Below, in pieces: positions 2,901 to 39,253 of a stretch of 64,000 nucleotides of DNA. The stretch is from Minisyncoccota bacterium. Lineage in GTDB: Bacteria; Patescibacteriota; Minisyncoccia; Phycocordibacterales; JAQTLZ01. Each line of letters starts with the position of its first letter. The stretch's first letter is position 1. Under the pieces are notes generated by a model. That model was not told the DNA's origin and did no database searches. It saw only the letters and a program-made list of their open reading frames with translations. The stretch spans positions 32,354 through 96,353 of the forward strand of contig JAQTLZ010000004.1 in NCBI GenBank assembly GCA_028714635.1. Reading direction: 5' to 3'. The translations under genes were made by a program, and so were the position numbers.

Positions 2901-3314
2901 TTAACGCTTACTCCATTGAGGCGACTTTCTCGCTTTCTTGAGACCGAATTTTCGTCTTTCTTTTGCTCTTGGATCTCGTTTTAGGAAGCCGAGTTTCTTC
3001 ATGTGCTTACGAAGTTCTGCATCGTGTTCTACGAGTGCTCGAGCTACTCCGTGTCGGAGTGCTTCTGCTTGGCCGGTGATTCCCCCGCCTTTCACCATTG
3101 CTGTGATTTTAAATTTGCTTGCAAGCTTCGCTTCTGTAAGAGGATTCATCACTGACATTCGAAGCTCATTAGTTCCAAAGTAGCTCTCTAGATCTTTGTT
3201 GTTTACGGTGAAAGATCCTTTTGTCGACGGAGTCATTCGAACTCGCGCAATCGCGGTCTTGCGTCGTCCCACGCATTCAATATATCGTCCTTCTTTTGTA
3301 TCTGTTGGTGTCAT
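2901..3314 (-). CDS. rpsI: 30S ribosomal protein S9.
   Basis: Conserved S9 C-terminus ...GGGITGQAEALRHGVARAL...RDPRAKERRKFGLKKARKSPQWSKR. Confidence 0.9.
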   Translation of the reverse strand: MTPTDTKEGRYIECVGRRKTAIARVRMTPSTKGSFTVNNKDLESYFGTNELRMSVMNPLTEAKLASKFKITAMVKGGGITGQAEALRHGVARALVEHDAELRKHMKKLGFLKRDPRAKERRKFGLKKARKSPQWSKR

Positions 3315-3319
3315 TTTAT

Positions 3320-3664
3320 TTATGCGGTGATAGTTAGGTTCTTCATCATTTTTCTCTGGAGCTTGTTCTTTGGAAGCATTCCGTAGACTGCATCAGAAAT
3401 GATTTCTTGGTGGCCGAGCTTTGAGACAACTTGCTTCATGCTCTTTGATTTCAAACCTCCTGGGTAGCCGGAATACTGCTTGTAGATTTTTTCTGTAAGC
3501 TTCTTTTCGGTAACAGAAACTTTTGAAGCGTTGGTGATTTCCACTTTCACTTCTGGCATCGCGTTCTTTGTGTAGCTCGCTTCGTTCTTGCCCATAAGAA
3601 GGCTCGCTGTCTTACTCGCAAGTCGTCCGAGTTTCTGATTTGTTGCGTCGATAGTATACTTCAT
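3320..3664 (-). CDS. rplM: 50S ribosomal protein L13.
   Basis: IDATNQKLGRLAS...GKN...YSGYPGG pattern, and the usual position upstream of rpsI. Confidence 0.85.
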   Translation of the reverse strand: MKYTIDATNQKLGRLASKTASLLMGKNEASYTKNAMPEVKVEITNASKVSVTEKKLTEKIYKQYSGYPGGLKSKSMKQVVSKLGHQEIISDAVYGMLPKNKLQRKMMKNLTITA

Positions 3665-3668
3665 GGTT

Positions 3669-4019
3669 TTATACGAAAGAAATTAATGCCATTCGCGCAC
3701 CGTCGCTCACTCTCTGTGGGAGCTTGACGATTCGTGTGTAGCCTCCTTTTCGGTCTTTATACTTTGGTGAAATGGTTTTGAAAAGGGTGTTCACTGCTGA
3801 CTTCATAGGAAGCTTTGCCTGTACAAGTCGGATTGCTTCACGATTGTCTACTCGAGATGCAGTCACAAGCTTCTCCATGTATGGTCGGAGTTCTTTTGCT
3901 TTTGCTTCGGTCGTAGTAATATGGCCGTGCTTGATGAGAGAGTATGCCAAAGAGCGCATGAGAGCTCGTCTCTGATCTGTTTCTCGTCCGAATTTTCTGT
4001 TTGAATTATGGTGACGCAT
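3669..4019 (-). CDS. rplQ: 50S ribosomal protein L17.
   Basis: MRHHNSNRKFGRETDQRRALMRSLA... is a classic L17 N-terminus. Confidence 0.9.
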   Translation of the reverse strand: MRHHNSNRKFGRETDQRRALMRSLAYSLIKHGHITTTEAKAKELRPYMEKLVTASRVDNREAIRLVQAKLPMKSAVNTLFKTISPKYKDRKGGYTRIVKLPQRVSDGARMALISFV

Positions 4020-4114
4020 GGGGTTAGCTTATTAGCTTCTATGCTTTTTAGCTTTTAAGTTTTGGATTTTGATTTGCATTTTCTAAGAAGCTTACAAGCT
4101 TATAAGCCAAAAAG

Positions 4115-5083
4115 CTATTTCAAAGCGATTCCGAAATTACTCAAAGCTTTCTTGATTTCCTGAACGCCCTTGTTGCCAAGACCGTCGATATCCAAGATAT
4201 CCTCTTCTTTCTTTCGTACAAGGCCTCCGACTGTTCGGATGTTTGCGCTTGCGAGAGCATTGAGAGTACGAGGAGAAAGATTCAAAGTTTCGATTCGAGT
4301 TTTGAGGAATTCTGCATCAAGCTCTTTCTTTGGCTTGCCTTCAGCTCCAGCCTCTTCTTTTGAATCAGCTTTTTCATTCTTCACTTCTTCTTCCTTGAAG
4401 CCGACGATAGCTTTCAACTGGTGAATCATGATCTCGATTGATTTCTCGAGAGCTTCTTTTGGAGTGATGGTGCCATCAGTCTGAATGAAGAGCTTGATTC
4501 GGTTGAAATCTGTTCGGTCGCCGACTCGCATATTTTCTACTTCGTAGTTTACGCGTCGGATAGGAGAGAAAATAGCATCAAGAGTGATTGCTCCGATATC
4601 TACTCGCTCTTTCATAAGAATTTCCTTTGGAATGTATCCGAGGCCCTTTTCAACCTTGAGCTCAATTTCAAGTTCGGTATTTTTTTCTGTAATGCTTGCG
4701 AGGTGAAGTTCAGGGTTCAAAATTTCAACTTGTCCGGAAGCTTTGATGTCTTCTGCAGTCACTTCCTTCGCGCCCTTTACTTTCAGGGTAAGGGTTTGAG
4801 GCTCGTTGGTGAGCATTTTGATTCGAACTCGTTTCAAATTGAGGATGATCGTAACAACATCTTCCTTCACGCCTGCGATAGTTGAAAATTCATGGCTTAC
4901 TCCGCTGATCTTCACAGAGGTGATCGCTGCGCCAGGGAGAGACGAGAGGATGATTCGGCGAAGAGAGTTGCCGATGGTGTGTCCGTATCCAGGATAAAAA
5001 CCGTCTATTTCATAGACTCCGTCGAATTCTTTTTCGGAGATGATCTTTGGCTTTGAAGGAAGAACGATTGTTGGATCAAACAT
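4115..5083 (-). CDS. rpoA: DNA-directed RNA polymerase subunit alpha.
   Basis: [28 protein letters not shown] motif plus the C-terminal domain; alpha-operon context. Confidence 0.9.
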   Translation of the reverse strand: [322 protein letters not shown]

Positions 5084-5191
5084 AGTTTTTGTGGTTAAAG
5101 TTTAAAAAAATGACTTGAAAAATATACCTTATTTTTGACAATTTTGCAAATGTGGATTGTATTGGAGGAAAGCGACCATTCCCCTACTTTG

Positions 5192-5803
5192 TTATCTGCT
5201 ATAAAATTCCAGTACCATTGCCAGATTAAACACGGTATTTATCGGCTCTGCCTTTGGCGCTCCCTGTATCGTTCCAGTCTTCTTTTCATTGTCGAATTTG
5301 ATCCATGAAGGGCAGGTGTAGGTCTTGAGTCTCTCTTCAAGCGGGCCAAAAAGAGGCTTCTTGACGCTTCGCTCTCGGATAGAGATAACATCTCCGATTT
5401 TTGTCTGTGCAGAAGGAATAGAAACTCGTTTTCCATTCAAATTGATGTGGCCGTGGTTTACCATTTGTCGTGCAGCAGCTCGTGTCGGAGCAAGTCCCAT
5501 TCGATAGACGACATTGTCGAGTCGAGATTCAAGCATTGTGTAGAGCTCTTCCGTAGGCTTTACTCCTTTCTTTGTCATTGATTCTTCGACGTATCGGCCG
5601 AATTGTCTTTCTCCCATTCCGTAGGTGAGGCGAGCTTTCTGCTTTTCGATAAGTTGAATGCCGAATTCAGAGCGCTGTTTTGGGTGCTTGTATTCCTTTC
5701 GTCCACGTCGAGCTTCTCGAATCGCAAATTTAGGATTCTGCGTCTTTTCGTAGATGGGAGCGCCGAGGCGTCGTGCTATTTTGTATCGTGGTCCAATTTT
5801 CAT
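5192..5803 (-). CDS. rpsD: 30S ribosomal protein S4.
   Basis: MKIGPRYKIARRLG N-terminus and an S4 RNA-binding domain. Confidence 0.9.
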   Translation of the reverse strand: MKIGPRYKIARRLGAPIYEKTQNPKFAIREARRGRKEYKHPKQRSEFGIQLIEKQKARLTYGMGERQFGRYVEESMTKKGVKPTEELYTMLESRLDNVVYRMGLAPTRAAARQMVNHGHINLNGKRVSIPSAQTKIGDVISIRERSVKKPLFGPLEERLKTYTCPSWIKFDNEKKTGTIQGAPKAEPINTVFNLAMVLEFYSR

Positions 5804-5815
5804 AATGGTAAAAAA

Positions 5816-6250
5816 TTATACGCGTCGAGGTTTTGGAGGCTTTGGGCCGTTATGCGGAACCGGGGTTCGGTCTGAAATTTCAAGTAAATTGATTCCTTTT
5901 GAAATAAATCCTCGGATCGCTGATTCTCGTCCAGAACCGACGCCTTTTACGACGACAGATACTTCTTTGATGCCCAAAACTGCGGCTTTTGCAGCGAGCG
6001 TTTCGCCGATCTTCGCAGCTGCGAAAGGAGTTCCCTTCTTTGCGCCCGCAAATCCGATAGAGCCAGATGAAGAAGCACAGAGAGCATTTCCTTTCTCGTC
6101 TGTGAGGAGGAGCTTGGTGTTGTTGTACGTAGATTCAACGTGGAGAATTCCCCGATCGTACTTCTTTTTTGTTGAAGCGCGCGAAGAAGCGTCTGTTTTC
6201 ACAGCACTTCCACCGGCTCCCGCTTCTGTTGTGATTCTTTTCTTTCCCAT
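5816..6250 (-). CDS. rpsK: 30S ribosomal protein S11.
   Basis: GILHVESTYNNT...SSSGSIGFAGAKKGTPFAA...ISDRTPVPHNGPKPPKPRRV. Confidence 0.9.
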   Translation of the reverse strand: MGKKRITTEAGAGGSAVKTDASSRASTKKKYDRGILHVESTYNNTKLLLTDEKGNALCASSSGSIGFAGAKKGTPFAAAKIGETLAAKAAVLGIKEVSVVVKGVGSGRESAIRGFISKGINLLEISDRTPVPHNGPKPPKPRRV

Positions 6251-6260
6251 TTAAATTATT

Positions 6261-6641
6261 TTATGTCTTTGTTTCTTTTCGTCGTCCGGTACCCATAGTC
6301 TTTCGTACATTTCCTCGTCGTGTTCGGGAATTGGTCTTTGTTCTCTGGCCTCGTGATGGAAGAGAACGGAGGTGTCGGATTCCTCGATATGCTTTGATGT
6401 CTTTCAAACGCTTAATATTTGCGCCGACTTCTCGCTTCAAATCTCCCTCGATCTTCATTTTTTCGATGATCTTTCGGATCTCGTTTTCTTCTTCAGGTTT
6501 CAAATCTTTCGCTTTTCGTCCGTGCTCGATCTTTGCTTCGTCGAGAATGCTTTGAGCTCGAGAACGTGCAATACCATAGAGGGAGGTAAGTCCGATTTCG
6601 AGTCTTTTATTATCTGGTATTGTGATTCCTACGATTCGCAT
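6261..6641 (-). CDS. rpsM: 30S ribosomal protein S13.
   Basis: MRIVGITIPDNKRLEIGLTSLYGIARSRA. Confidence 0.9.
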   Translation of the reverse strand: MRIVGITIPDNKRLEIGLTSLYGIARSRAQSILDEAKIEHGRKAKDLKPEEENEIRKIIEKMKIEGDLKREVGANIKRLKDIKAYRGIRHLRSLPSRGQRTKTNSRTRRGNVRKTMGTGRRKETKT

Positions 6642-6650
6642 GATTTTAAA

Positions 6651-6728
6651 TAGGGTTTAGGGTGAAGGGTTTAGGAGGTTCGGATGCTTGGTGTTTTTAT
6701 ACCCTCTACCCTATCCCCTTTACCCTGT
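6651..6728. repeat. G-rich arm / loop / C-rich arm inverted repeat built from GGGTNNN heptads, copy 1 of 2. It sits about 9 nt 5' of the rpsM start.
   Basis: tagggtttagggtgaagggtttagg ... accctctaccctatcccctttaccct. A homologous element lies at 16471-16569. Confidence 0.6.
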
Positions 6729-6732
6729 TTTG

Positions 6733-6849
6733 CTAGCCTTGTCGCTGTTTGTGCCGCGGGTCGCTTTTGCAAATGACATAAACATAGCCCTTTCGTCGGA
6801 CTACTTTGCATTGCGGACACATTTTTTTAACTGATGATTTTACCTTCAT
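6733..6849 (-). CDS. rpmJ: 50S ribosomal protein L36. Not in the ORF track (38 aa).
   Basis: My minus-strand translation gives [38 protein letters not shown]. It lies between infA and rpsM, as expected. Confidence 0.85.
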
Positions 6850-6912
6850 TTAAATACAAGAAAAACAGTATGTAACTGTTTCTGCTCCGGCAAATCTACC
6901 GGACATTAAATT

Positions 6913-7131
6913 TTACAAACGTCTGATGATCCTTCCCTTTCCTCCATAGGGTTCGAGCTCAACTTCTACTTTGTCGCCGATGAGTACTCGAATTCGATTC
7001 AAGCGCATTTTGCCTGAAAGGTACGTGAGCAACTCATCTTTCCCTTCAATTTTGACCTTAAAAAGAGCATTTGGAAGTGCTTCGGTAACTATACCGAGCA
7101 CTGATTCGGGTCTCTGTTGTGGGTTCTGCAT
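6913..7131 (-). CDS. infA: Translation initiation factor IF-1.
   Basis: S1-like fold and the ...[28 protein letters not shown]-terminus. Confidence 0.9.
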
Positions 7132-17984: not shown

Positions 17985-18022
17985 AACAAAAAACTGCCTT
18001 GCCGGCAGTTTTTTGTTTTTAT
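17985..18022. terminator. Hairpin with a T run.
   Basis: aactgcc-ttgcc-ggcagtt followed by ttttgttttt. Confidence 0.5.
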
Positions 18023-19053
18023 CCTACGAGAGAGTATTTTGCGTCTTTGTCTTTCTTGAAGTGCTTCGAGTTTTGGAGGTTAATCGCAATAGTGTTCTCC
18101 TTGACATATCGTTCTTTGAGCACTTTTTCAATGATTTCTTGTTTCGTCAATGGTCCGTGCTTTTCGAGAACCTTCTTGATAACGTCTTTTACCACTCCTG
18201 AAAGATATCCCCATTCAGAAAGAGCATAGAGTCCGCGTCCTACAAGCACGAATCGAGGATCTTTGATGAGCTCGTTGTGACAGGTTGCGACATGAGCCTT
18301 CTTTTTGAACGTATCGGTAATTGCTTTTGCAACTTGAGTGAAGTGGATCGGAGAGCCGTGCTTTCGGATAACGAGAAATGCGTAGTCTCTCATTCCTTTC
18401 GCTTTAATATTTGGAGAAGAAGTTAGTCCCCACTCGCCCATTGGATTTCGGCCGATCTTTTTTGAAACTGAAAGCCATCGCTTGATGATCTCTTCTTTTT
18501 TGAAATGATCAGAAAGATCTTTTACGTAATCAAGGAAAGTGTTGATGATCTCTGATTCCGGAATAATATCGTCGTCGCCAAGGTTTTTGTAAAGTTTTCG
18601 CAGTGATTCGTGTACCTTTGCAGAAAGAGCATCGTCAACATACCATCGGTGCTTGAATTCATCGTCCTCTTTCTCTCGCTTAAAGTTGTGGCTCAAAATC
18701 ATGAGAAAGTTGATGTGATTCTGGGTAGAAGCATCTTTTGCAAGATGACTTAGAAAATCCTCTTCCGCAACAAATCCACCCATTTCATGAAGGATCGCTT
18801 CAAGCTCGTCAAAAGCAGCCTTTTCTTTCTTGTAGCCTTCGGATTTCTTGATGTTGTGAATCGCGTAGTTTTCGATCTGTCGAACTCGTTCTCGAGTGAT
18901 GTTGTATGTCTTGCCGATCGCCTCAAGAGTCATTCGTTCCGGCTTTGCACCAAGCCCAAAACGGCTTACGAGCACATCCCTCGCGCGAGCAGGGAGAACG
19001 CCCAAAAGCTTCTTGGTTATCTGTTTTGGTTTAAATTTAATTGCTGGTGTCAT
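18019..19053 (-). CDS. Protein with an N-terminal sigma-70 region-4-like HTH domain and a long C-terminal domain of unknown function.
   Basis: ARDVLVSRFGLG...TLEAIGKTYNITRERVRQIE closely resembles sigma-70 region 4.2. Confidence 0.55.
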   Translation of the reverse strand: MTPAIKFKPKQITKKLLGVLPARARDVLVSRFGLGAKPERMTLEAIGKTYNITRERVRQIENYAIHNIKKSEGYKKEKAAFDELEAILHEMGGFVAEEDFLSHLAKDASTQNHINFLMILSHNFKREKEDDEFKHRWYVDDALSAKVHESLRKLYKNLGDDDIIPESEIINTFLDYVKDLSDHFKKEEIIKRWLSVSKKIGRNPMGEWGLTSSPNIKAKGMRDYAFLVIRKHGSPIHFTQVAKAITDTFKKKAHVATCHNELIKDPRFVLVGRGLYALSEWGYLSGVVKDVIKKVLEKHGPLTKQEIIEKVLKERYVKENTIAINLQNSKHFKKDKDAKYSLVG

Positions 19054-19234: not shown

Positions 19235-22200
19235 TTATACGACGATACTCACTAATTTATTTTTTACGTAGATAATTTTTTTCGCGGTCTTTCCCTCCAT
19301 CCACTTCAGCGTTTCTGGAAGTGAGAGAGCTCTTTTCTTGGTCTCCTCCTCCCCCATCTCGCTTTCGACCCTAAATTCTCCGCGCACTTTTCCATTTACT
19401 TGTACGACGATTGTGAAGGACGATGTCCCGATCAAAGCACTATCAAATACAGGCCACTGTGCATCTTTTAGCTCTCCCTTTCCGAATAGTGACCATAATT
19501 CTTGCGTAACATGAGGAGCGAATGGTGAGAGAATTTTGAGAAAATCCGAGAATATTTCTGCTCCGATCTCTGTTTCTTTTTCGGCCTCATTTAAAAACAT
19601 CATCATTGAAGAGATCGCTGTATTGAATTTGAAATCAACGATATCTTCACCAACTTTTTTGATTGTTTTGTGAAGCGAGTTTAAAAGATTCTGCGATGGC
19701 GCTGTTTTGGGCTTTTGGGCGACCTTCTGTGAAAGTTTCCAGACGCGCTCTACAAAGCGCCGTGAACCGATCATGCTTTCTGTACTCCAATTGATGGCAT
19801 TTTCAAACGGACCCATAAACATTTCATAAATACGAAGTGTATCGGCGCCATAGAGCTTGATGATATCATCGGGATTAATAACATTTCCGAATCTTTTACT
19901 CATTTTCTTCCCGTCTTCGGCAAGTATGAGTCCTTGGTTCTTGAGACGCATGAATGGTTCAGTCGTCGAGACCGCTCCGATATCAAAAAGAAATTTGTGC
20001 CAGAAGCGCGCGTAAATAAGATGGCGTGTCGCATGTTCTGTCCCCCCGACGTAGACATCTACAGGCGCCCAATACTTTTCTTTTTTTGGATCTACAAATG
20101 TTTTAGAATTTTTGGGGTCCATGTAGCGGAGATAATACCAAGAAGAGCCCGCCCATTGGGGCATTGTGTTTGTTTCCCGCTTTGCAGGACCATAGCATTT
20201 CGGGCATTTCACATTTACCCATTTTGAAATTTCAGCAAGCGGAGACTCCCCCGTTCCTGTCGGCGCATATGACTTTACTTTGGGCAATTTTACCGGCAAA
20301 TCCTTTTCCGGAACTGGTACAGTCCCGCACTTTTCACAGTGGATTATTGGAATCGGTTCGCCCCAATATCTTTGGCGTGAAAAAACCCAATCGCGCAGGC
20401 GGTAAGTTGTTTTTTTCACAGCAAGCTTGTTTTTTTCCAGGTACGAGATGATGTTCTGTCTTTCCTTTCCGGAGAACTTTCCTTCGAATGCTTTTGGTTC
20501 GTTAAGAACCCCATTTTTCATATCACTGAAACAAACTTCAAGGTTTCGAACTTTTTCAGCAAGGACTTTGTCCGCCGGAAAGAGTACCGGTTTCAAACGA
20601 ATCTTATATTTTTTCGCAAAAGCAAAATCACGTTCGTCATGAACCGAACATTTTACAATTCCCGTACCATAATCAGCTAAAGCAAAACTGGCGATCCAAA
20701 TTGGAAGGTCTCCATTCCCTACCGGGTCTACAATATATCTGCCTGTGAAAATTCCTTCTGATTCTTTTTCTTCCGCGAAGCCTTGTCCCGCACGCTTTTT
20801 AATAAGTCCTGCCGCAAAATCAAGAATCTCTTTTTTGTTCGGTATTCCTTCAAGAAGTTTTGGTAGATATGGGTGATCCGGAGCAATCACGACGAATGTA
20901 TCGGCCGTAAATGCTTCAAAATGAGCCGAAAAGGTCTGAATTGTGAGCTTCGTGTCTTTGACGGGTGCCGTAAAAAGCATTCCTTCTGACTTCCCTATCC
21001 AATTTCTCTGGGATTCTTTGATTGACTCTGGCCAATTCAAGCCCGCTGTTCTTTGCCCCTTTTGGATTCTTGGCAGTATTTTTTTCTGTACCGCGTCTAT
21101 TACATGCGAATAGCGGATTTCATCAGATTCCTCTGATTTATATTCTCCTGTTTGCGGATCTTTGATGAGCGATTCTACCGGATATCCGTCCCAAAAAGTT
21201 TTTGACTGTTGATCCTGCAAAATATATTCCTTGCCTTTTGCAACTAAGTTTTCGGTACCCGATGCATCGGTAAAAGAAAGAGCATAAAGGAATCTGCTTT
21301 TCGATTCCCCGTTCTTTTTCACGAAATCTTTAAGATATTTCACAACCTCCTCATCGCTTGCCCGAGGAGAATTGGGATTCGCGTGTTTCCGCATATGAAC
21401 GACATTTCCATCATTTTCGGGCCATTTCTCCATCCAGAAAATGTGGTCGCTTGAAAGGGTAGGAATTCCAGTCTTTTTAAAATAATATTCGGATTTTTTC
21501 CGAGCGTTTTCCTCGAAGTCATCGCCTTCTACGAGATCGGAATCATCAATTTTTGCTATGTCGTCTAGGGATAGTAACGTTATTCCGCTTTCTTTGGGAA
21601 CGCATCTCCTCCACATTTCTACTTTGGCATTATTTCTCGTTCCGATAAGAATTTTCAGAGGTTCTTTTTGAACTGGCGCGTCGAGATCAGCAAGAAGACG
21701 TTCTGCGTAGTCGGTGATTTTCAAAATCCATTGCCGCATCGGACGTTTTTCCACGACAGAACCACATCGTTCGCATTTTCCATCTTCCAAGTCTTCATTC
21801 GCGAGTCCCGTCTGGCAGGATGGACACCAATTGATCGGTTCGTATGATTCATATGCCAATCCTTTTTTGAAAAGCTCCAAGAATATCCACTGCGTCCATT
21901 TGTAGTATTTCGGATCAGTCGTGTTTATCTCCCGGGTCCAATCATAATTGAAACCCATAATGGAGAGCTGTTCTTTAAAACGCTTGATATTTTTCTTCAC
22001 AGCAATTTCGGGATGAATCTTATTTTTTATCGCGTAGTTTTCCGCGGGCAAGCCAAAAGCGTCCCAACCCATAGGGTGGAGGATGTTATATCCTTTCATT
22101 TGCATAAAGCGCGAGTAGATGTCGGTAGCTATGTAGCCTTTTGGGTGACCCACATGAAGACCGTCTCCCGAAGGATATGGAAACATGTCCAAGACATAAT

Positions 22201-22300
22201 GTTTTGGCTTTTTCGGATCTTCATGGGAGGTGTAGACTTTTTTCCGAGCCCATTCTTTTTGCCACTTCTTTTCGATCTTTAGATGATCGTATTTTTGCAT
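19235..22300 (-). CDS. leuS: Leucine--tRNA ligase carrying a ~210-aa insertion between the catalytic core and the CP1 editing domain.
   Basis: HVGH and KMSK motifs, a CP1 editing domain and an anticodon-binding domain. I moved the start to MQKYD (22300) because the upstream terminator hairpin would otherwise lie inside the ORF. Confidence 0.9.
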   Translation of the reverse strand: MQKYDHLKIEKKWQKEWARKKVYTSHEDPKKPKHYVLDMFPYPSGDGLHVGHPKGYIATDIYSRFMQMKGYNILHPMGWDAFGLPAENYAIKNKIHPEIAVKKNIKRFKEQLSIMGFNYDWTREINTTDPKYYKWTQWIFLELFKKGLAYESYEPINWCPSCQTGLANEDLEDGKCERCGSVVEKRPMRQWILKITDYAERLLADLDAPVQKEPLKILIGTRNNAKVEMWRRCVPKESGITLLSLDDIAKIDDSDLVEGDDFEENARKKSEYYFKKTGIPTLSSDHIFWMEKWPENDGNVVHMRKHANPNSPRASDEEVVKYLKDFVKKNGESKSRFLYALSFTDASGTENLVAKGKEYILQDQQSKTFWDGYPVESLIKDPQTGEYKSEESDEIRYSHVIDAVQKKILPRIQKGQRTAGLNWPESIKESQRNWIGKSEGMLFTAPVKDTKLTIQTFSAHFEAFTADTFVVIAPDHPYLPKLLEGIPNKKEILDFAAGLIKKRAGQGFAEEKESEGIFTGRYIVDPVGNGDLPIWIASFALADYGTGIVKCSVHDERDFAFAKKYKIRLKPVLFPADKVLAEKVRNLEVCFSDMKNGVLNEPKAFEGKFSGKERQNIISYLEKNKLAVKKTTYRLRDWVFSRQRYWGEPIPIIHCEKCGTVPVPEKDLPVKLPKVKSYAPTGTGESPLAEISKWVNVKCPKCYGPAKRETNTMPQWAGSSWYYLRYMDPKNSKTFVDPKKEKYWAPVDVYVGGTEHATRHLIYARFWHKFLFDIGAVSTTEPFMRLKNQGLILAEDGKKMSKRFGNVINPDDIIKLYGADTLRIYEMFMGPFENAINWSTESMIGSRRFVERVWKLSQKVAQKPKTAPSQNLLNSLHKTIKKVGEDIVDFKFNTAISSMMMFLNEAEKETEIGAEIFSDFLKILSPFAPHVTQELWSLFGKGELKDAQWPVFDSALIGTSSFTIVVQVNGKVRGEFRVESEMGEEETKKRALSLPETLKWMEGKTAKKIIYVKNKLVSIVV

Positions 22301-22317
22301 GAACTTTAGAATACAAT

Positions 22318-22356
22318 ACAAAAAACGCCGGCGCAACACGCCGGCGTTTTTTTGGA
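22318..22356. terminator. Strong bidirectional rho-independent terminator.
   Basis: aacgccggcg-caaca-cgccggcgtt flanked by A and T runs. Confidence 0.65.
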
Positions 22357-22357
22357 A

Positions 22358-23281
22358 TTATTTTTTGGGAGGCGGATAGAGCTGTGTATCAATTACTCGG
22401 GCAAAACAGGTGTAGCCAGAGTCATGGCTCCAGTTGTAATCTTGCGATCGTATGGGTGCGAGAGGCGCGGACACTTCGGTAAATTTTGGAGACGTAACTT
22501 TTAAGTTGAAGGTGGCGCAAAGATCGAATAAAAGCCCACCAGTAAAACGGTAAACATACTCTCTTCCCTCAGGATCTTGAGGTACACTCCAGCCAGAAAT
22601 TGAATCATTTAGCTCAGAGAGTTTTTTGGGAAGTTCGCCCTTTTTCTGCCAATAGTTCACGATCTGATATTGGATATTCTGTAGGTCGTAGATTCTTTGT
22701 TCGTCGAAGCGTAATGCTCTCTCCCGCGCTGGCGAGCCTACGGTAAGAAGTCCGCCGACAAGGAGAGCTACGACTGCAAGAGCGGAGATGATGAATGCCC
22801 ATCGAGCACGCTTTTTTCCATCAGCTTCTTCCCGCAGATCAATGATGTAATAGCTAAAGATTCCTCCGGTCACGATGACGACTGACAGGACCTTCAGGAT
22901 AAATCGCAAGGTTATCTCGCCATTCAGGAATGTGTTGATGAGGACGATGAGAGTTACCGCAACAGCGGCTCCGGCCAGAAAAAGAGTGATGTAAGTGAGC
23001 CATCGGCGTACCCAGGTATTTTTCCGCGAAGGTTCAAGTCTTTCAGTCTTGCGCGCAAAATATGAAAAAACGATATAGAGCGGAAAGCCCACAATGAGCG
23101 TTGCCATGGCGATACGGATGCTTTGCGGTGCGCCATAGGAGTAATTCAGGGCATCTGGCATGAGGTATTCAAGAATACCGAAAAGGATATTGAGGAAAGC
23201 AATAGTTGATGCATACAGCGTTATCGAGATGGCGACGTTTAAAAAGAAGTCTTTTGGGGTGGTTTTGGTTTGTGGTTCCAT
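22358..23281 (-). CDS. Hypothetical polytopic membrane protein with a C-terminal extracytoplasmic domain.
   Basis: Several predicted TM helices; no recognisable motif. Confidence 0.55.
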   Translation of the reverse strand: MEPQTKTTPKDFFLNVAISITLYASTIAFLNILFGILEYLMPDALNYSYGAPQSIRIAMATLIVGFPLYIVFSYFARKTERLEPSRKNTWVRRWLTYITLFLAGAAVAVTLIVLINTFLNGEITLRFILKVLSVVIVTGGIFSYYIIDLREEADGKKRARWAFIISALAVVALLVGGLLTVGSPARERALRFDEQRIYDLQNIQYQIVNYWQKKGELPKKLSELNDSISGWSVPQDPEGREYVYRFTGGLLFDLCATFNLKVTSPKFTEVSAPLAPIRSQDYNWSHDSGYTCFARVIDTQLYPPPKK

Positions 23282-24032: not shown

Positions 24033-24857
24033 TCAAAACTTTTTGATTTGCAGGCATCTTTCCATTTTCTCAAAAAGCCTGGGGTTTCTTCGCACATGCT
24101 TGAATGCCGAACCCCAGGGATCCAAATGGTGTCTGGCATATGAATACACCTCGACGAGCCGATCAATCCCGATCGTCTTTTCGTCCGCTTCCGGTGCATA
24201 GTTATTCAGCCGGCGAGCGAGTGCTTCGAGTGCTTCATCGCCAACAGCTAGGATTCGCATCGACCAGTCGTTTTTTCCTATCCAGTGTCTGCGCACATAA
24301 AGTCCGGCTGATATTCTTTGATAGCCGAACAATGTTGTTGCTGACAAAGTCGTGCGGTTGAGCTGGAGACTTAGCAGTGTTCGATAGGGGTTAAACATCA
24401 TTGTCCGCCGATCGTACGTCAGAATTCCCTGGCCGGACTGTATGAGTGTCACATCCAAATTTTCCGGGTCGAATTCAAAGCCCTGTTCTGGGACTTTTCC
24501 GAAAACACATATTCCTTTCGGCAAGTGTTTGTCTACGCGAAAACAGTACACTTCGAAATGTCCCACCAGCTGTCCTGGACATTCTCTTGCGTCCTGAAGA
24601 AGTAAGTGAAGCTTCCTACTTTCTCTTTCTATCGTCGCGCCATTCTTCGTCTTTTTTTCTTCACGGTCCAATTTTGCCAGCTGTGCGAACACCAATGCAG
24701 TTATCTCTTCTCTTGAAAGGAGTTGGTGTTTATTCTCGTAGCCACCCTTCTCAATTCGTTCGACGAAGTCTAAAAGTTTTCTCCGCAACGCACTTTCCTT
24801 CCTGGTTACTCTTCGGTATTCGGCGTACAAGCGCCGAAAATCGTTCTCGACGCTCAT
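24033..24857 (-). CDS. Hypothetical protein; GC-rich.
   Basis: 274-aa ORF with no recognisable motif. Confidence 0.5.
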   Translation of the reverse strand: MSVENDFRRLYAEYRRVTRKESALRRKLLDFVERIEKGGYENKHQLLSREEITALVFAQLAKLDREEKKTKNGATIERESRKLHLLLQDARECPGQLVGHFEVYCFRVDKHLPKGICVFGKVPEQGFEFDPENLDVTLIQSGQGILTYDRRTMMFNPYRTLLSLQLNRTTLSATTLFGYQRISAGLYVRRHWIGKNDWSMRILAVGDEALEALARRLNNYAPEADEKTIGIDRLVEVYSYARHHLDPWGSAFKHVRRNPRLFEKMERCLQIKKF

Positions 24858-39180: not shown

Positions 39181-39253
39181 GGGCCCATAGCTCAGCTGGT
39201 AGAGCAGTGCTTTTGCAAAGCAAAGGTCAGCGGTTCGAATCCGCTTGGGTCCA
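39181..39253 (+). tRNA. tRNA-Ala(UGC).
   Basis: Cloverleaf folded by hand. Anticodon TGC in the loop ctTTTGCAAag, the G3:U70 Ala identity pair, a TTCGAAT T-loop, discriminator A, and CC encoded. Confidence 0.9.

Follow-up and report, generated by a model that had tools for sequence, protein, structure and literature searches.

The leucyl-tRNA synthetase (LeuRS) encoded in a 64-kb stretch of DNA from a Minisyncoccota bacterium (GenBank assembly GCA_028714635.1, contig JAQTLZ010000004.1, positions 32,354 to 96,353 of the forward strand; the whole stretch is called the window below) contains a complete Ham1/RdgB-fold domain, inserted directly before the linker to the CP1 editing domain. This domain belongs to a Ham1-like subfamily that is tied to the LeuRS gene, leuS, in three arrangements: as an insert at the position used in the window (site A), as an insert at a second position (site B), and as a free gene upstream of leuS. 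So far, the subfamily is almost confined to metagenome-assembled genomes (MAGs) of Patescibacteria. What looked like the oddity of a single gene is one face of a recurrent, lineage-wide association. The residues that the subfamily conserves point, with moderate confidence on our part, to a catalytic nucleotide pyrophosphohydrolase, which would act on a substrate other than inosine or xanthosine triphosphate (ITP, XTP), as a separate active site tethered to LeuRS and as one of several hydrolase modules associated with leuS.

Fold, active site, and selection

The leuS gene and the relevant parts of its product are located as follows (window positions; aa, amino acids):

19235..22339, minus strand: open reading frame (ORF) of leuS; the start codon is in fact the ATG at 22300 (MQKYDH...)
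19235..22300, minus strand: leuS coding sequence, 1021 aa plus stop, assigned by TIGR00396 and NCBI record P0003 and modeled with AlphaFold2 (AF2)
21674..22300, minus strand: LeuRS residues 1-209, the N-terminal half of the Rossmann fold and the zinc-finger region, ending in ...ITDYAERLLADLDAP
22145..22156, minus strand: HIGH signature, here HVGH, residues 49-52; all four are invariant in a 70-sequence alignment
21038..21673, minus strand: inserted Ham1/ITPase-fold (ITPase, inosine triphosphatase) domain, LeuRS residues 210-421, 212 aa
20981..21037, minus strand: NWPESIKESQRNWIGKSEG, the linker to CP1, directly after the insert (site A)
20438..21007, minus strand: CP1 editing domain (PF13603, 123.9 bits over residues 432-621)
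19892..19906, minus strand: KMSKS signature, here KMSKR, residues 799-803; K799, M800, S801, and K802 are invariant

The synthetase is of the bacterial type. Its TIGR00396 match (953.6 bits; cut-off 548.4) is split by the insert into two stretches, and the 1021-aa protein is 100% identical to NCBI record P0003, 'MAG: leucine--tRNA ligase [Candidatus Pacebacteria bacterium]'. Residues 1-209 are 97% identical to the corresponding segment of the orthologue P0004. With HVGH, KMSKR, and the HDERD motif all present, the protein looks intact as a synthetase, and in an AF2 model of the whole LeuRS (predicted local distance difference test, pLDDT, 88.4; predicted template modeling score, pTM, 0.72) the synthetase body was predicted confidently. 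In established LeuRS structures, the linker that here reads NWPESIKESQRNWIGKSEG is the beta-strand connecting the catalytic core to the CP1 editing domain.

The insert is bounded by ...YAERLLADLDAP, whose ADLDAP ends at 21674, and by NWPESIKESQRNWIGKSEG, whose NWPESIK starts at 21037. The distance from the start of TxYAxxL to the start of NWIG is 236 residues in the window protein versus 24 in insert-free relatives. A reading of the sequence alone that preceded this analysis (the sequence-only reading) had placed an insertion of about 210 aa between ADLDAP and NWPESIK, where 212 residues were found; the interval it gave, 21065-21664, lies inside the insert and translates to EPLKILIGT...LPRI. 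It had also noticed a resemblance to Ham1/RdgB proteins, and this was borne out by profile, sequence, and structure searches. The excised insert matched Pfam PF01725 at 30.8 bits (E=3.3e-7; gathering cut-off 22.5) over profile positions 1-138 of 186. A k-mer-limited search with the insert alone gave two fragments only; the family was revealed by an exhaustive phmmer search of 1.84 billion representatives, which returned 281 matches at E<=1e-3. The matches beyond the closest family are proteins of about 200 aa aligned over almost the entire query; six of them were scanned, and each matches PF01725. Against the NCBIfam equivalog models for XTP/dITP diphosphatase, the insert scored about 30 bits, far below the cut-offs of 234-272, and it is therefore not an equivalog of these enzymes.

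The AF2 model of the insert was built on an alignment of 17 LeuRS-borne copies and reached a mean pLDDT of 91.9 and a pTM of 0.85. It has the Ham1 alpha/beta fold, with two lobes on a central sheet. In a Foldseek search against the PDB, the top 32 matches were all of the RdgB/Ham1/ITPA/KomB type, with Maf proteins next; the alignments to RdgB, ITPA, and Ham1 structures had 12-19% sequence identity. Sequence-only PDB searches were weak, giving 6wwd alone across the N-terminal 77 residues. In the whole-LeuRS model, the insert forms a well-folded unit and the linker behind it is soft (residues 411-420, pLDDT 64). The insert and the core have GC contents of 0.41 and 0.43 (0.39 and 0.44 at third codon positions), and neither a compositional anomaly nor direct or flanking repeats at the insert junctions were found as signs of a recent mobile insertion.

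We aligned the LeuRS-borne copies with free relatives, distant Ham1 proteins of 200 aa, E. coli RdgB (a sequence identical to that of PDB 1k7k), and what we take to be the human ITPA sequence, using MAFFT and hhalign. Both programs reproduced the four segments that the sequence-only reading had aligned by eye; only the C-terminal 'SH', a pair that the subfamily does not conserve, came out in a different register. The 17 LeuRS-borne copies are 48-72% identical to the window copy, and 38 columns are invariant across them. The active-site correspondences to RdgB, each of them invariant in the 17 copies, are:

21623..21643, minus strand: GTRNNAK motif, insert residues 11-17, matching the phosphate-binding TGNxGK of RdgB; T12, N14, and K17 correspond to RdgB T8, N10, and K13
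E49: RdgB E41, in a register uncertain by one residue
N56 and K60: RdgB N49 and K53
21446..21448, minus strand: codon of insert Asp76 (LeuRS D285), which corresponds to RdgB D69
R95/K96: a basic pair at RdgB A86/R87 (the SAR position)

Other motifs have changed. The first Asp of the DD pair (RdgB D68) is Ser or Thr in the subfamily (Ser in the window copy), while the second is kept. The SHR motif is absent: the window copy has SHV and others have GKV, KMV, AKI, etc., with a near-invariant R-Y just before it. GFGYD has become GYPxE/D. In ITPases, SHR is the motif for ITP/XTP substrate specificity (PMC5075207, PMC7865087). Distant free-living proteins show identical changes, which argues for a divergent Ham1 clade rather than a decaying copy; this clade without the SHR motif is defined here.

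The sequence-only reading had judged the domain degenerate, with several catalytic residues not conserved, and probably inactive or repurposed. The first Asp and SHR are lost; the second Asp (D76) and the basic pair at the SAR position are invariant, and with most of its phosphate- and metal-site residues kept, the domain is less degenerate than had been claimed. Given the invariance of all the residues listed above in 17 copies, the inference of inactivity is not supported. The domain may have been repurposed, as the same reading had also put forward, and its substrate altered.

Selection was assessed by comparing the window LeuRS with its closest orthologue, P0004 (locus L019, with identical gene order). 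The two are 88% identical in the LeuRS core and 60% in the insert. The number of nonsynonymous substitutions per site (dN) is 0.076 for the core and 0.30 for the insert, with 0.19 in the N-terminal half of the insert and 0.43 in its C-terminal, base-pocket half. Because the synonymous distance (dS) between the two is saturated (>2.6), the result is a comparison of dN values together with a bound, rather than a formal dN/dS. A dN of 0.30 with a saturated dS places dN/dS well below 1, and by this measure the insert is clearly under purifying selection, which would be about four times weaker than on the core, the insert evolving about four times faster. Purifying selection makes a 'dead' domain unlikely. 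No frameshifts or stop codons were found in 13 full-length proteins and 12 genome loci (overlapping sets).

Two insertion sites, a free gene, and other hydrolases at leuS

At least one insert of at least 50 aa is present in 49 of the 120 best LeuRS matches, all of which are of the Patescibacteria type; as the query has an insert of its own, this sample is biased. The Ham1-like domain occurs in 17 of the 120. Site A lies before WPxxIKxxQxNWIG. Site B is about 35 residues further on, in the first CP1 hairpin, between NWIGKSEGxEIxF and VFTTRPDT. The users of the two sites are:

Site A: the window LeuRS, P0004-P0007, P0031, P0036, P0051, P0054, P0064, P0071, P0090, and P0120
Site B: P0019, P0039, P0043, P0092, P0123, P0124, and P0125

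When one genome per GTDB species was scanned with a pattern, 12 LeuRS-borne Ham1-like copies (site A in 3, site B in 9) and one free copy turned up. The MAGs are labeled Paceibacterota, Taylorbacteria, Kerfeldbacteria, 'Saccharibacteria', and 'bacterium', with a single exception labeled Gammaproteobacteria, for which we suspect a binning or labeling error.

The histories of insert and host disagree. The site-B insert of P0019 shares 72% identity with that of the window, whereas the LeuRS cores share just 58%; the P0004 insert shares 60% despite the 88% core identity. After P0004, the closest cores are insert-free or NUDIX-bearing; the insert-free P0008 has 72% core identity. In a neighbor-joining tree (rough, without support values), the window and P0004 copies fall among the site-B and free forms, off the main site-A clade.

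In one of the loci with a Ham1-like insert (L002, protein P0001), a reverse-transcriptase (RVT_1) gene at 692-1912 lies directly upstream of leuS. In another sequence (L001, 1-1069, 1069 bp; protein P0002), one frame runs through a LeuRS fragment, a Ham1-like domain, and a fragment like lysyl-tRNA synthetase (LysRS). We rejected it as a case of a Ham1-like domain in LysRS, given its coverage of 1.09, upstream stop codons, and a micro-homology join at FVEKH. The LysRS join is probably an assembly chimera at this short shared peptide; the LeuRS-to-Ham1 junction is a genuine site B.

A profile search found free-standing proteins of 202-212 aa that are 45-56% identical to the window insert, together with a two-domain protein of NUDIX and Ham1-like parts (P0292). 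The free Ham1-like gene lies upstream of leuS and on the same strand in all seven loci examined, the P0288 contig being a probable case. The gene (203-205 aa) is directly adjacent to leuS in six of these loci and one gene removed in the seventh:

P0285 (L020): 29 bp before a 1171-aa LeuRS carrying NUDIX
P0128: 24 bp before a 787-aa insert-free LeuRS
P0288: 1 bp ahead of a 601-aa gene that is truncated and probably leuS, with the synteny unchanged
P0290 (L021): overlapping the leuS start
P0292, NUDIX plus Ham1-like (L022): 5 bp before leuS, with Fpg upstream
P0284 (L023): Ser_hydrolase gene, Ham1-like gene, one further gene, then leuS
P0126 (L024): 11 bp before a leuS in which neither site A nor site B holds an insert

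In L020 and the P0288 contig, the order is DUF5671, Ham1-like gene, leuS. As a control, the more distant Ham1 relative P0149 lies away from leuS, in an unrelated Firmicutes-like neighborhood. The tandem of free genes in L023 recurs within a synthetase: a 1254-aa LeuRS (L028, ORF 3251-7015) carries a Ser_hydrolase plus Ham1-like tandem at site B, in the order of the free genes in L023 and of the fused free protein P0127. We had considered P0125 (1004 aa) as a split LeuRS that starts with hydrolase domains; the DNA shows a miscalled start, and there is one 1254-aa LeuRS, that of L028.

Two side observations concern these loci. The gene preceding the free NUDIX plus Ham1-like gene in L022 (66-2141) encodes a DNA glycosylase of the Fpg/MutM type, which fits a theme of damaged-purine sanitation. 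The gene between the free Ham1-like gene and leuS in L023 (1349-1939) is a 196-aa ORF without a Pfam match, and perhaps belongs to the leuS-linked gene set as well.

An all-against-all BLAST comparison sorted the pieces inserted into LeuRSs into four families and one singleton, and Pfam names the families. In the numbering of the insert-free P0008, they are located as follows:

Ham1-like: 17 proteins, at position ~208 or after NWIG
NUDIX, with an intact Nudix box: 36 proteins (of the 120), at ~208 or inside CP1 at ~363-384
PF06821 serine hydrolase: 3 proteins, at ~446
HAD: 3 proteins, at ~495
Singleton piece of 137 aa (P0079): 1 protein, at ~446

The NUDIX, PF06821, HAD, and singleton inserts were seen in LeuRSs of the range P0009-P0121. 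Some LeuRSs bear two or three inserts; P0064 (1359 aa) has Ham1-like, NUDIX, and Ser_hydrolase pieces. To judge by the full Nudix box that they keep, the NUDIX inserts look catalytically competent. Bacterial synthetases are usually seen as architecturally conservative; the essential LeuRS of these genome-reduced bacteria of the candidate phyla radiation (CPR) repeatedly gains nucleotide- or ester-hydrolase domains.

The CP1 domain of the window LeuRS has TFSAHFEAFTADT (FSAHFEAF) instead of the threonine-rich TTRPDT, and HDERD is kept. Most close relatives likewise have TTRPDT replaced by TFSAHFEAFxADT or, in another group, by MYNSVPQTYxAET, with HDxRD kept. The altered region spans 20900-20970 of the window (LeuRS residues ~445-470) and is also found in the relatives P0005-P0122. 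The residue that we take to be T252 in E. coli numbering would be Ala in the window LeuRS. From these motifs, editing specificity may be altered in a large clade of Paceibacteria. We found no correlation between hydrolase inserts and loss of the threonine-rich motif, since LeuRSs with canonical TTRPDT bear inserts and many motif-lacking ones have none.

Function of the domain and competing explanations

Two features of the active site, namely that most of the triphosphate- and metal-binding residues are kept and that SHR, by which hypoxanthine and xanthine are selected, is lost, lead us to propose a pyrophosphohydrolase with a substrate other than ITP or XTP. The Ham1-like domain would occupy a surface position at the base of the beta-linker to CP1 in a working LeuRS, that of a CPR bacterium of the Paceibacteria type. 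It would be folded, ligand-binding, and most probably catalytic, converting nucleoside triphosphate to monophosphate and pyrophosphate or making a related attack on P-alpha. Flexible linkers would tether it to LeuRS, where it would act as a separate active site, and it may be one of several hydrolase modules (with NUDIX, the PF06821 serine hydrolase, and HAD) beside or inside leuS. Catalysis, a changed specificity, an autonomous active site, and any functional link with leucylation or proofreading are inferred.

Several observations weigh against this proposal. E49 stands one position later than RdgB E41 unless a one-residue gap is shifted. RdgB and ITPA conserve the first acidic residue of their DD/ED pair; here it is Ser or Thr, a change that could cripple catalysis. 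In the C-terminal lobe, where ITPases have their base pocket, the window and P0004 copies share only 47% identity, against 88% in the cores; such divergence would fit a relaxed constraint on the substrate pocket. Canonical ITPases form homodimers (PMC5075207), a state that may be out of reach for an inserted copy. KomB, the Ham1-like subunit of the anti-phage Kongming complex KomBC, is a ligand sensor (PMC13454610). Finally, the linkage to leuS could mirror mere gene position, with a neighbor captured by local rearrangement.

KomB sets the precedent for the least unlikely of the alternatives, a nucleotide sensor that is no enzyme. Placed on the hinge between the core and CP1, the domain would shift CP1 upon binding and thereby tune aminoacylation or editing, and the free forms would dock onto LeuRS. 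We consider this unlikely: E49 and D76, which would be needed for chemistry beyond binding, are invariant, the co-occurring modules belong to ordinary hydrolase families (with the catalytic box of NUDIX intact), and LeuRSs of the same core types work without the insert, e.g., P0008.

A broader proposal is a hydrolase toolkit dedicated to LeuRS in Patescibacteria, with Ham1-like, NUDIX, PF06821, and HAD modules placed beside leuS or in the CP1-hinge loops and coupled to leucylation. CPR organisms must scavenge nucleotides. The toolkit might destroy mis-activated adenylates, esters, or side-products, or might gate LeuRS in response to the scavenged nucleotide pool. We hold this to be quite improbable as stated; if true, organisms whose CP1 editing motifs are altered would have a new accessory layer of quality control, or of regulation, for a synthetase.

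Another alternative, to which we assign a low probability, is a part in LeuRS quality control. The Ham1-like domain, with the NUDIX, serine-hydrolase, and HAD modules, would hydrolyze error or side products of the synthetase, such as released non-cognate aminoacyl-adenylate, Ap4A-type dinucleotides, or aminoacyl esters, and would complement a CP1 domain without its threonine-rich motif. The window LeuRS and most of its close relatives have the altered motifs in place of TTRPDT, four hydrolase families converge on leuS as neighbors, fusions, and inserts, and the P-alpha that Ham1 enzymes would attack on a nucleotide would be the same phosphorus as in an aminoacyl-adenylate. RBBP9 is presumably a PF06821 member. 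According to Shenoy 2020, as cited in PMC7730578, it activates valacyclovir, an aminoacyl ester of a nucleoside analogue. However, inserts also occur in LeuRSs with canonical TTRPDT (P0019, P0039, P0043, P0071, P0090, and P0120), many motif-lacking LeuRSs are insert-free, and a leaving group of pyrophosphate, not of an amino acid, is what the retained Lys and Arg would fit.

We give an equally low probability to a neutral passenger, i.e., a neighboring gene captured into a permissive loop of leuS that is now decaying or persists as a structural bulge. The free gene adjoins leuS, and proximity alone could account for repeated capture; the roughly fourfold rate of insert evolution, the insert-free state of the closest cores after P0004, and the plain composition and repeat-free junctions would all suit such a history. 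A passenger, however, would hardly be expected to show a dN of 0.30 against a saturated dS, active-site residues invariant down to 48% identity, reading frames free of frameshifts and stops in LeuRS-borne copies and intact as ORFs in the free genes, and a confident structure model.

An assembly or binning artefact on a chimeric contig has next to no probability, and for the window it is excluded by the many independent orthologous loci: L001, a related short contig, is clearly patchy (coverage 1.09), but the same in-frame architecture recurs in many independent NCBI, ENA, JGI, and Logan assemblies on contigs of up to 426 kb, and the orthologue P0004 has its 60% identical insert in the same place.

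Where fusion and neighborhood give a joint signal ('Rosetta stone'), a real functional partnership is usually behind it. A true partnership here would point to an unrecognized link of nucleotide-pool sanitation or error-product hydrolysis with tRNA charging. If it is not real, the family would still be a clean natural example of how an essential enzyme takes up a neighboring gene as an internal domain, and does so at more than one site.

Related systems and the surroundings of leuS

The acidic residue D68 and the SHR and GFGYD motifs are present in RdgB, ITPA, and Ham1 (PF01725; PDB 1k7k, 2q16, 1vp2, 4bnq, and 2j4e) and changed in the insert. RdgB and ITPA are free homodimers, whereas the Ham1-like domain sits inside another enzyme. 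The divergent free-living Ham1 proteins P0131-P0151 (about 200 aa) are closer in kind: they are about 30% identical to the insert over its full length, have likewise lost the first Asp and SHR, and have an H-x-R-[RK] motif in common with it. Their own motif is QPGxHVRR, and JGI names them XTP/dITP diphosphohydrolase or 8-oxo-dGTP diphosphatase. They are stand-alone proteins with weak-to-moderate PF01725 scores, and P0149, the one checked, is not near leuS.

KomB has a SIR2 NADase as its partner, with which it forms part of a filament, and it responds to dITP (PMC13454610). Where KomB (PDB 8zsg, 9v0g, and 9xvc) has a SIR2 partner, the partner here is LeuRS, through a covalent link or gene adjacency; unlike KomB, the Ham1-like insert has no defense context in the window. 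The HAM1 of cassava brown streak virus is likewise a Ham1 domain inside a larger polypeptide beside a nucleotide-using enzyme (PMC8893687, PMC7865087): it lies within the potyvirid polyprotein, adjacent to the RNA polymerase. Potyvirid polyproteins are cleaved to mature products (PMC9249622). The viral HAM1 is thus freed by proteolysis and keeps the canonical ITPase motifs and activity, whereas the LeuRS insert is a true internal domain without SHR.

Class I aminoacyl-tRNA synthetases are known as preferred hosts of inserted domains (PMC13114784). Their lineage-specific domains include CP1 and the leucine-specific domain of LeuRS. The NCBIfam model NF040702 describes an isoleucyl-tRNA synthetase with an unrelated N-acetyltransferase domain, so that an enzyme domain in a synthetase has already been modeled. 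Keyword searches of about 8 million full texts, in which subscription journals are largely missing, found no description of a synthetase with Ham1, NUDIX, PF06821, or HAD, nor of a leuS-linked Ham1 subfamily. Neither the Ham1 family nor the insertion of domains into class I synthetases is new, and PF01725 is already annotated on a few LeuRSs of this kind; one domain family at two sites of a protein, together with a free gene beside the host gene, is unusual.

The neighbors of leuS in the window are:

22358..23281, minus strand: upstream neighbor, a DUF5671 membrane protein (PF18920, 75.1 bits)
18019..19053, minus strand: downstream neighbor, a Sigma70_r4/HARE-HTH protein

The order DUF5671, leuS, Sigma70_r4/HARE-HTH is found both in the window and in L020, and the Sigma70_r4/HARE-HTH gene also lies 3' of leuS in L019, L020, and the P0128 contig. 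Two genes upstream of leuS, a 274-aa ORF at 24033-24857 (minus strand) had no Pfam match at E<=0.01. There is no second Ham1, NUDIX, HAD, or PF06821 gene among the ORFs of the window. Rfam gave no rRNA or further structured RNA in the window; the sole match above its gathering score was one tRNA gene at 39181-39253 (plus strand).

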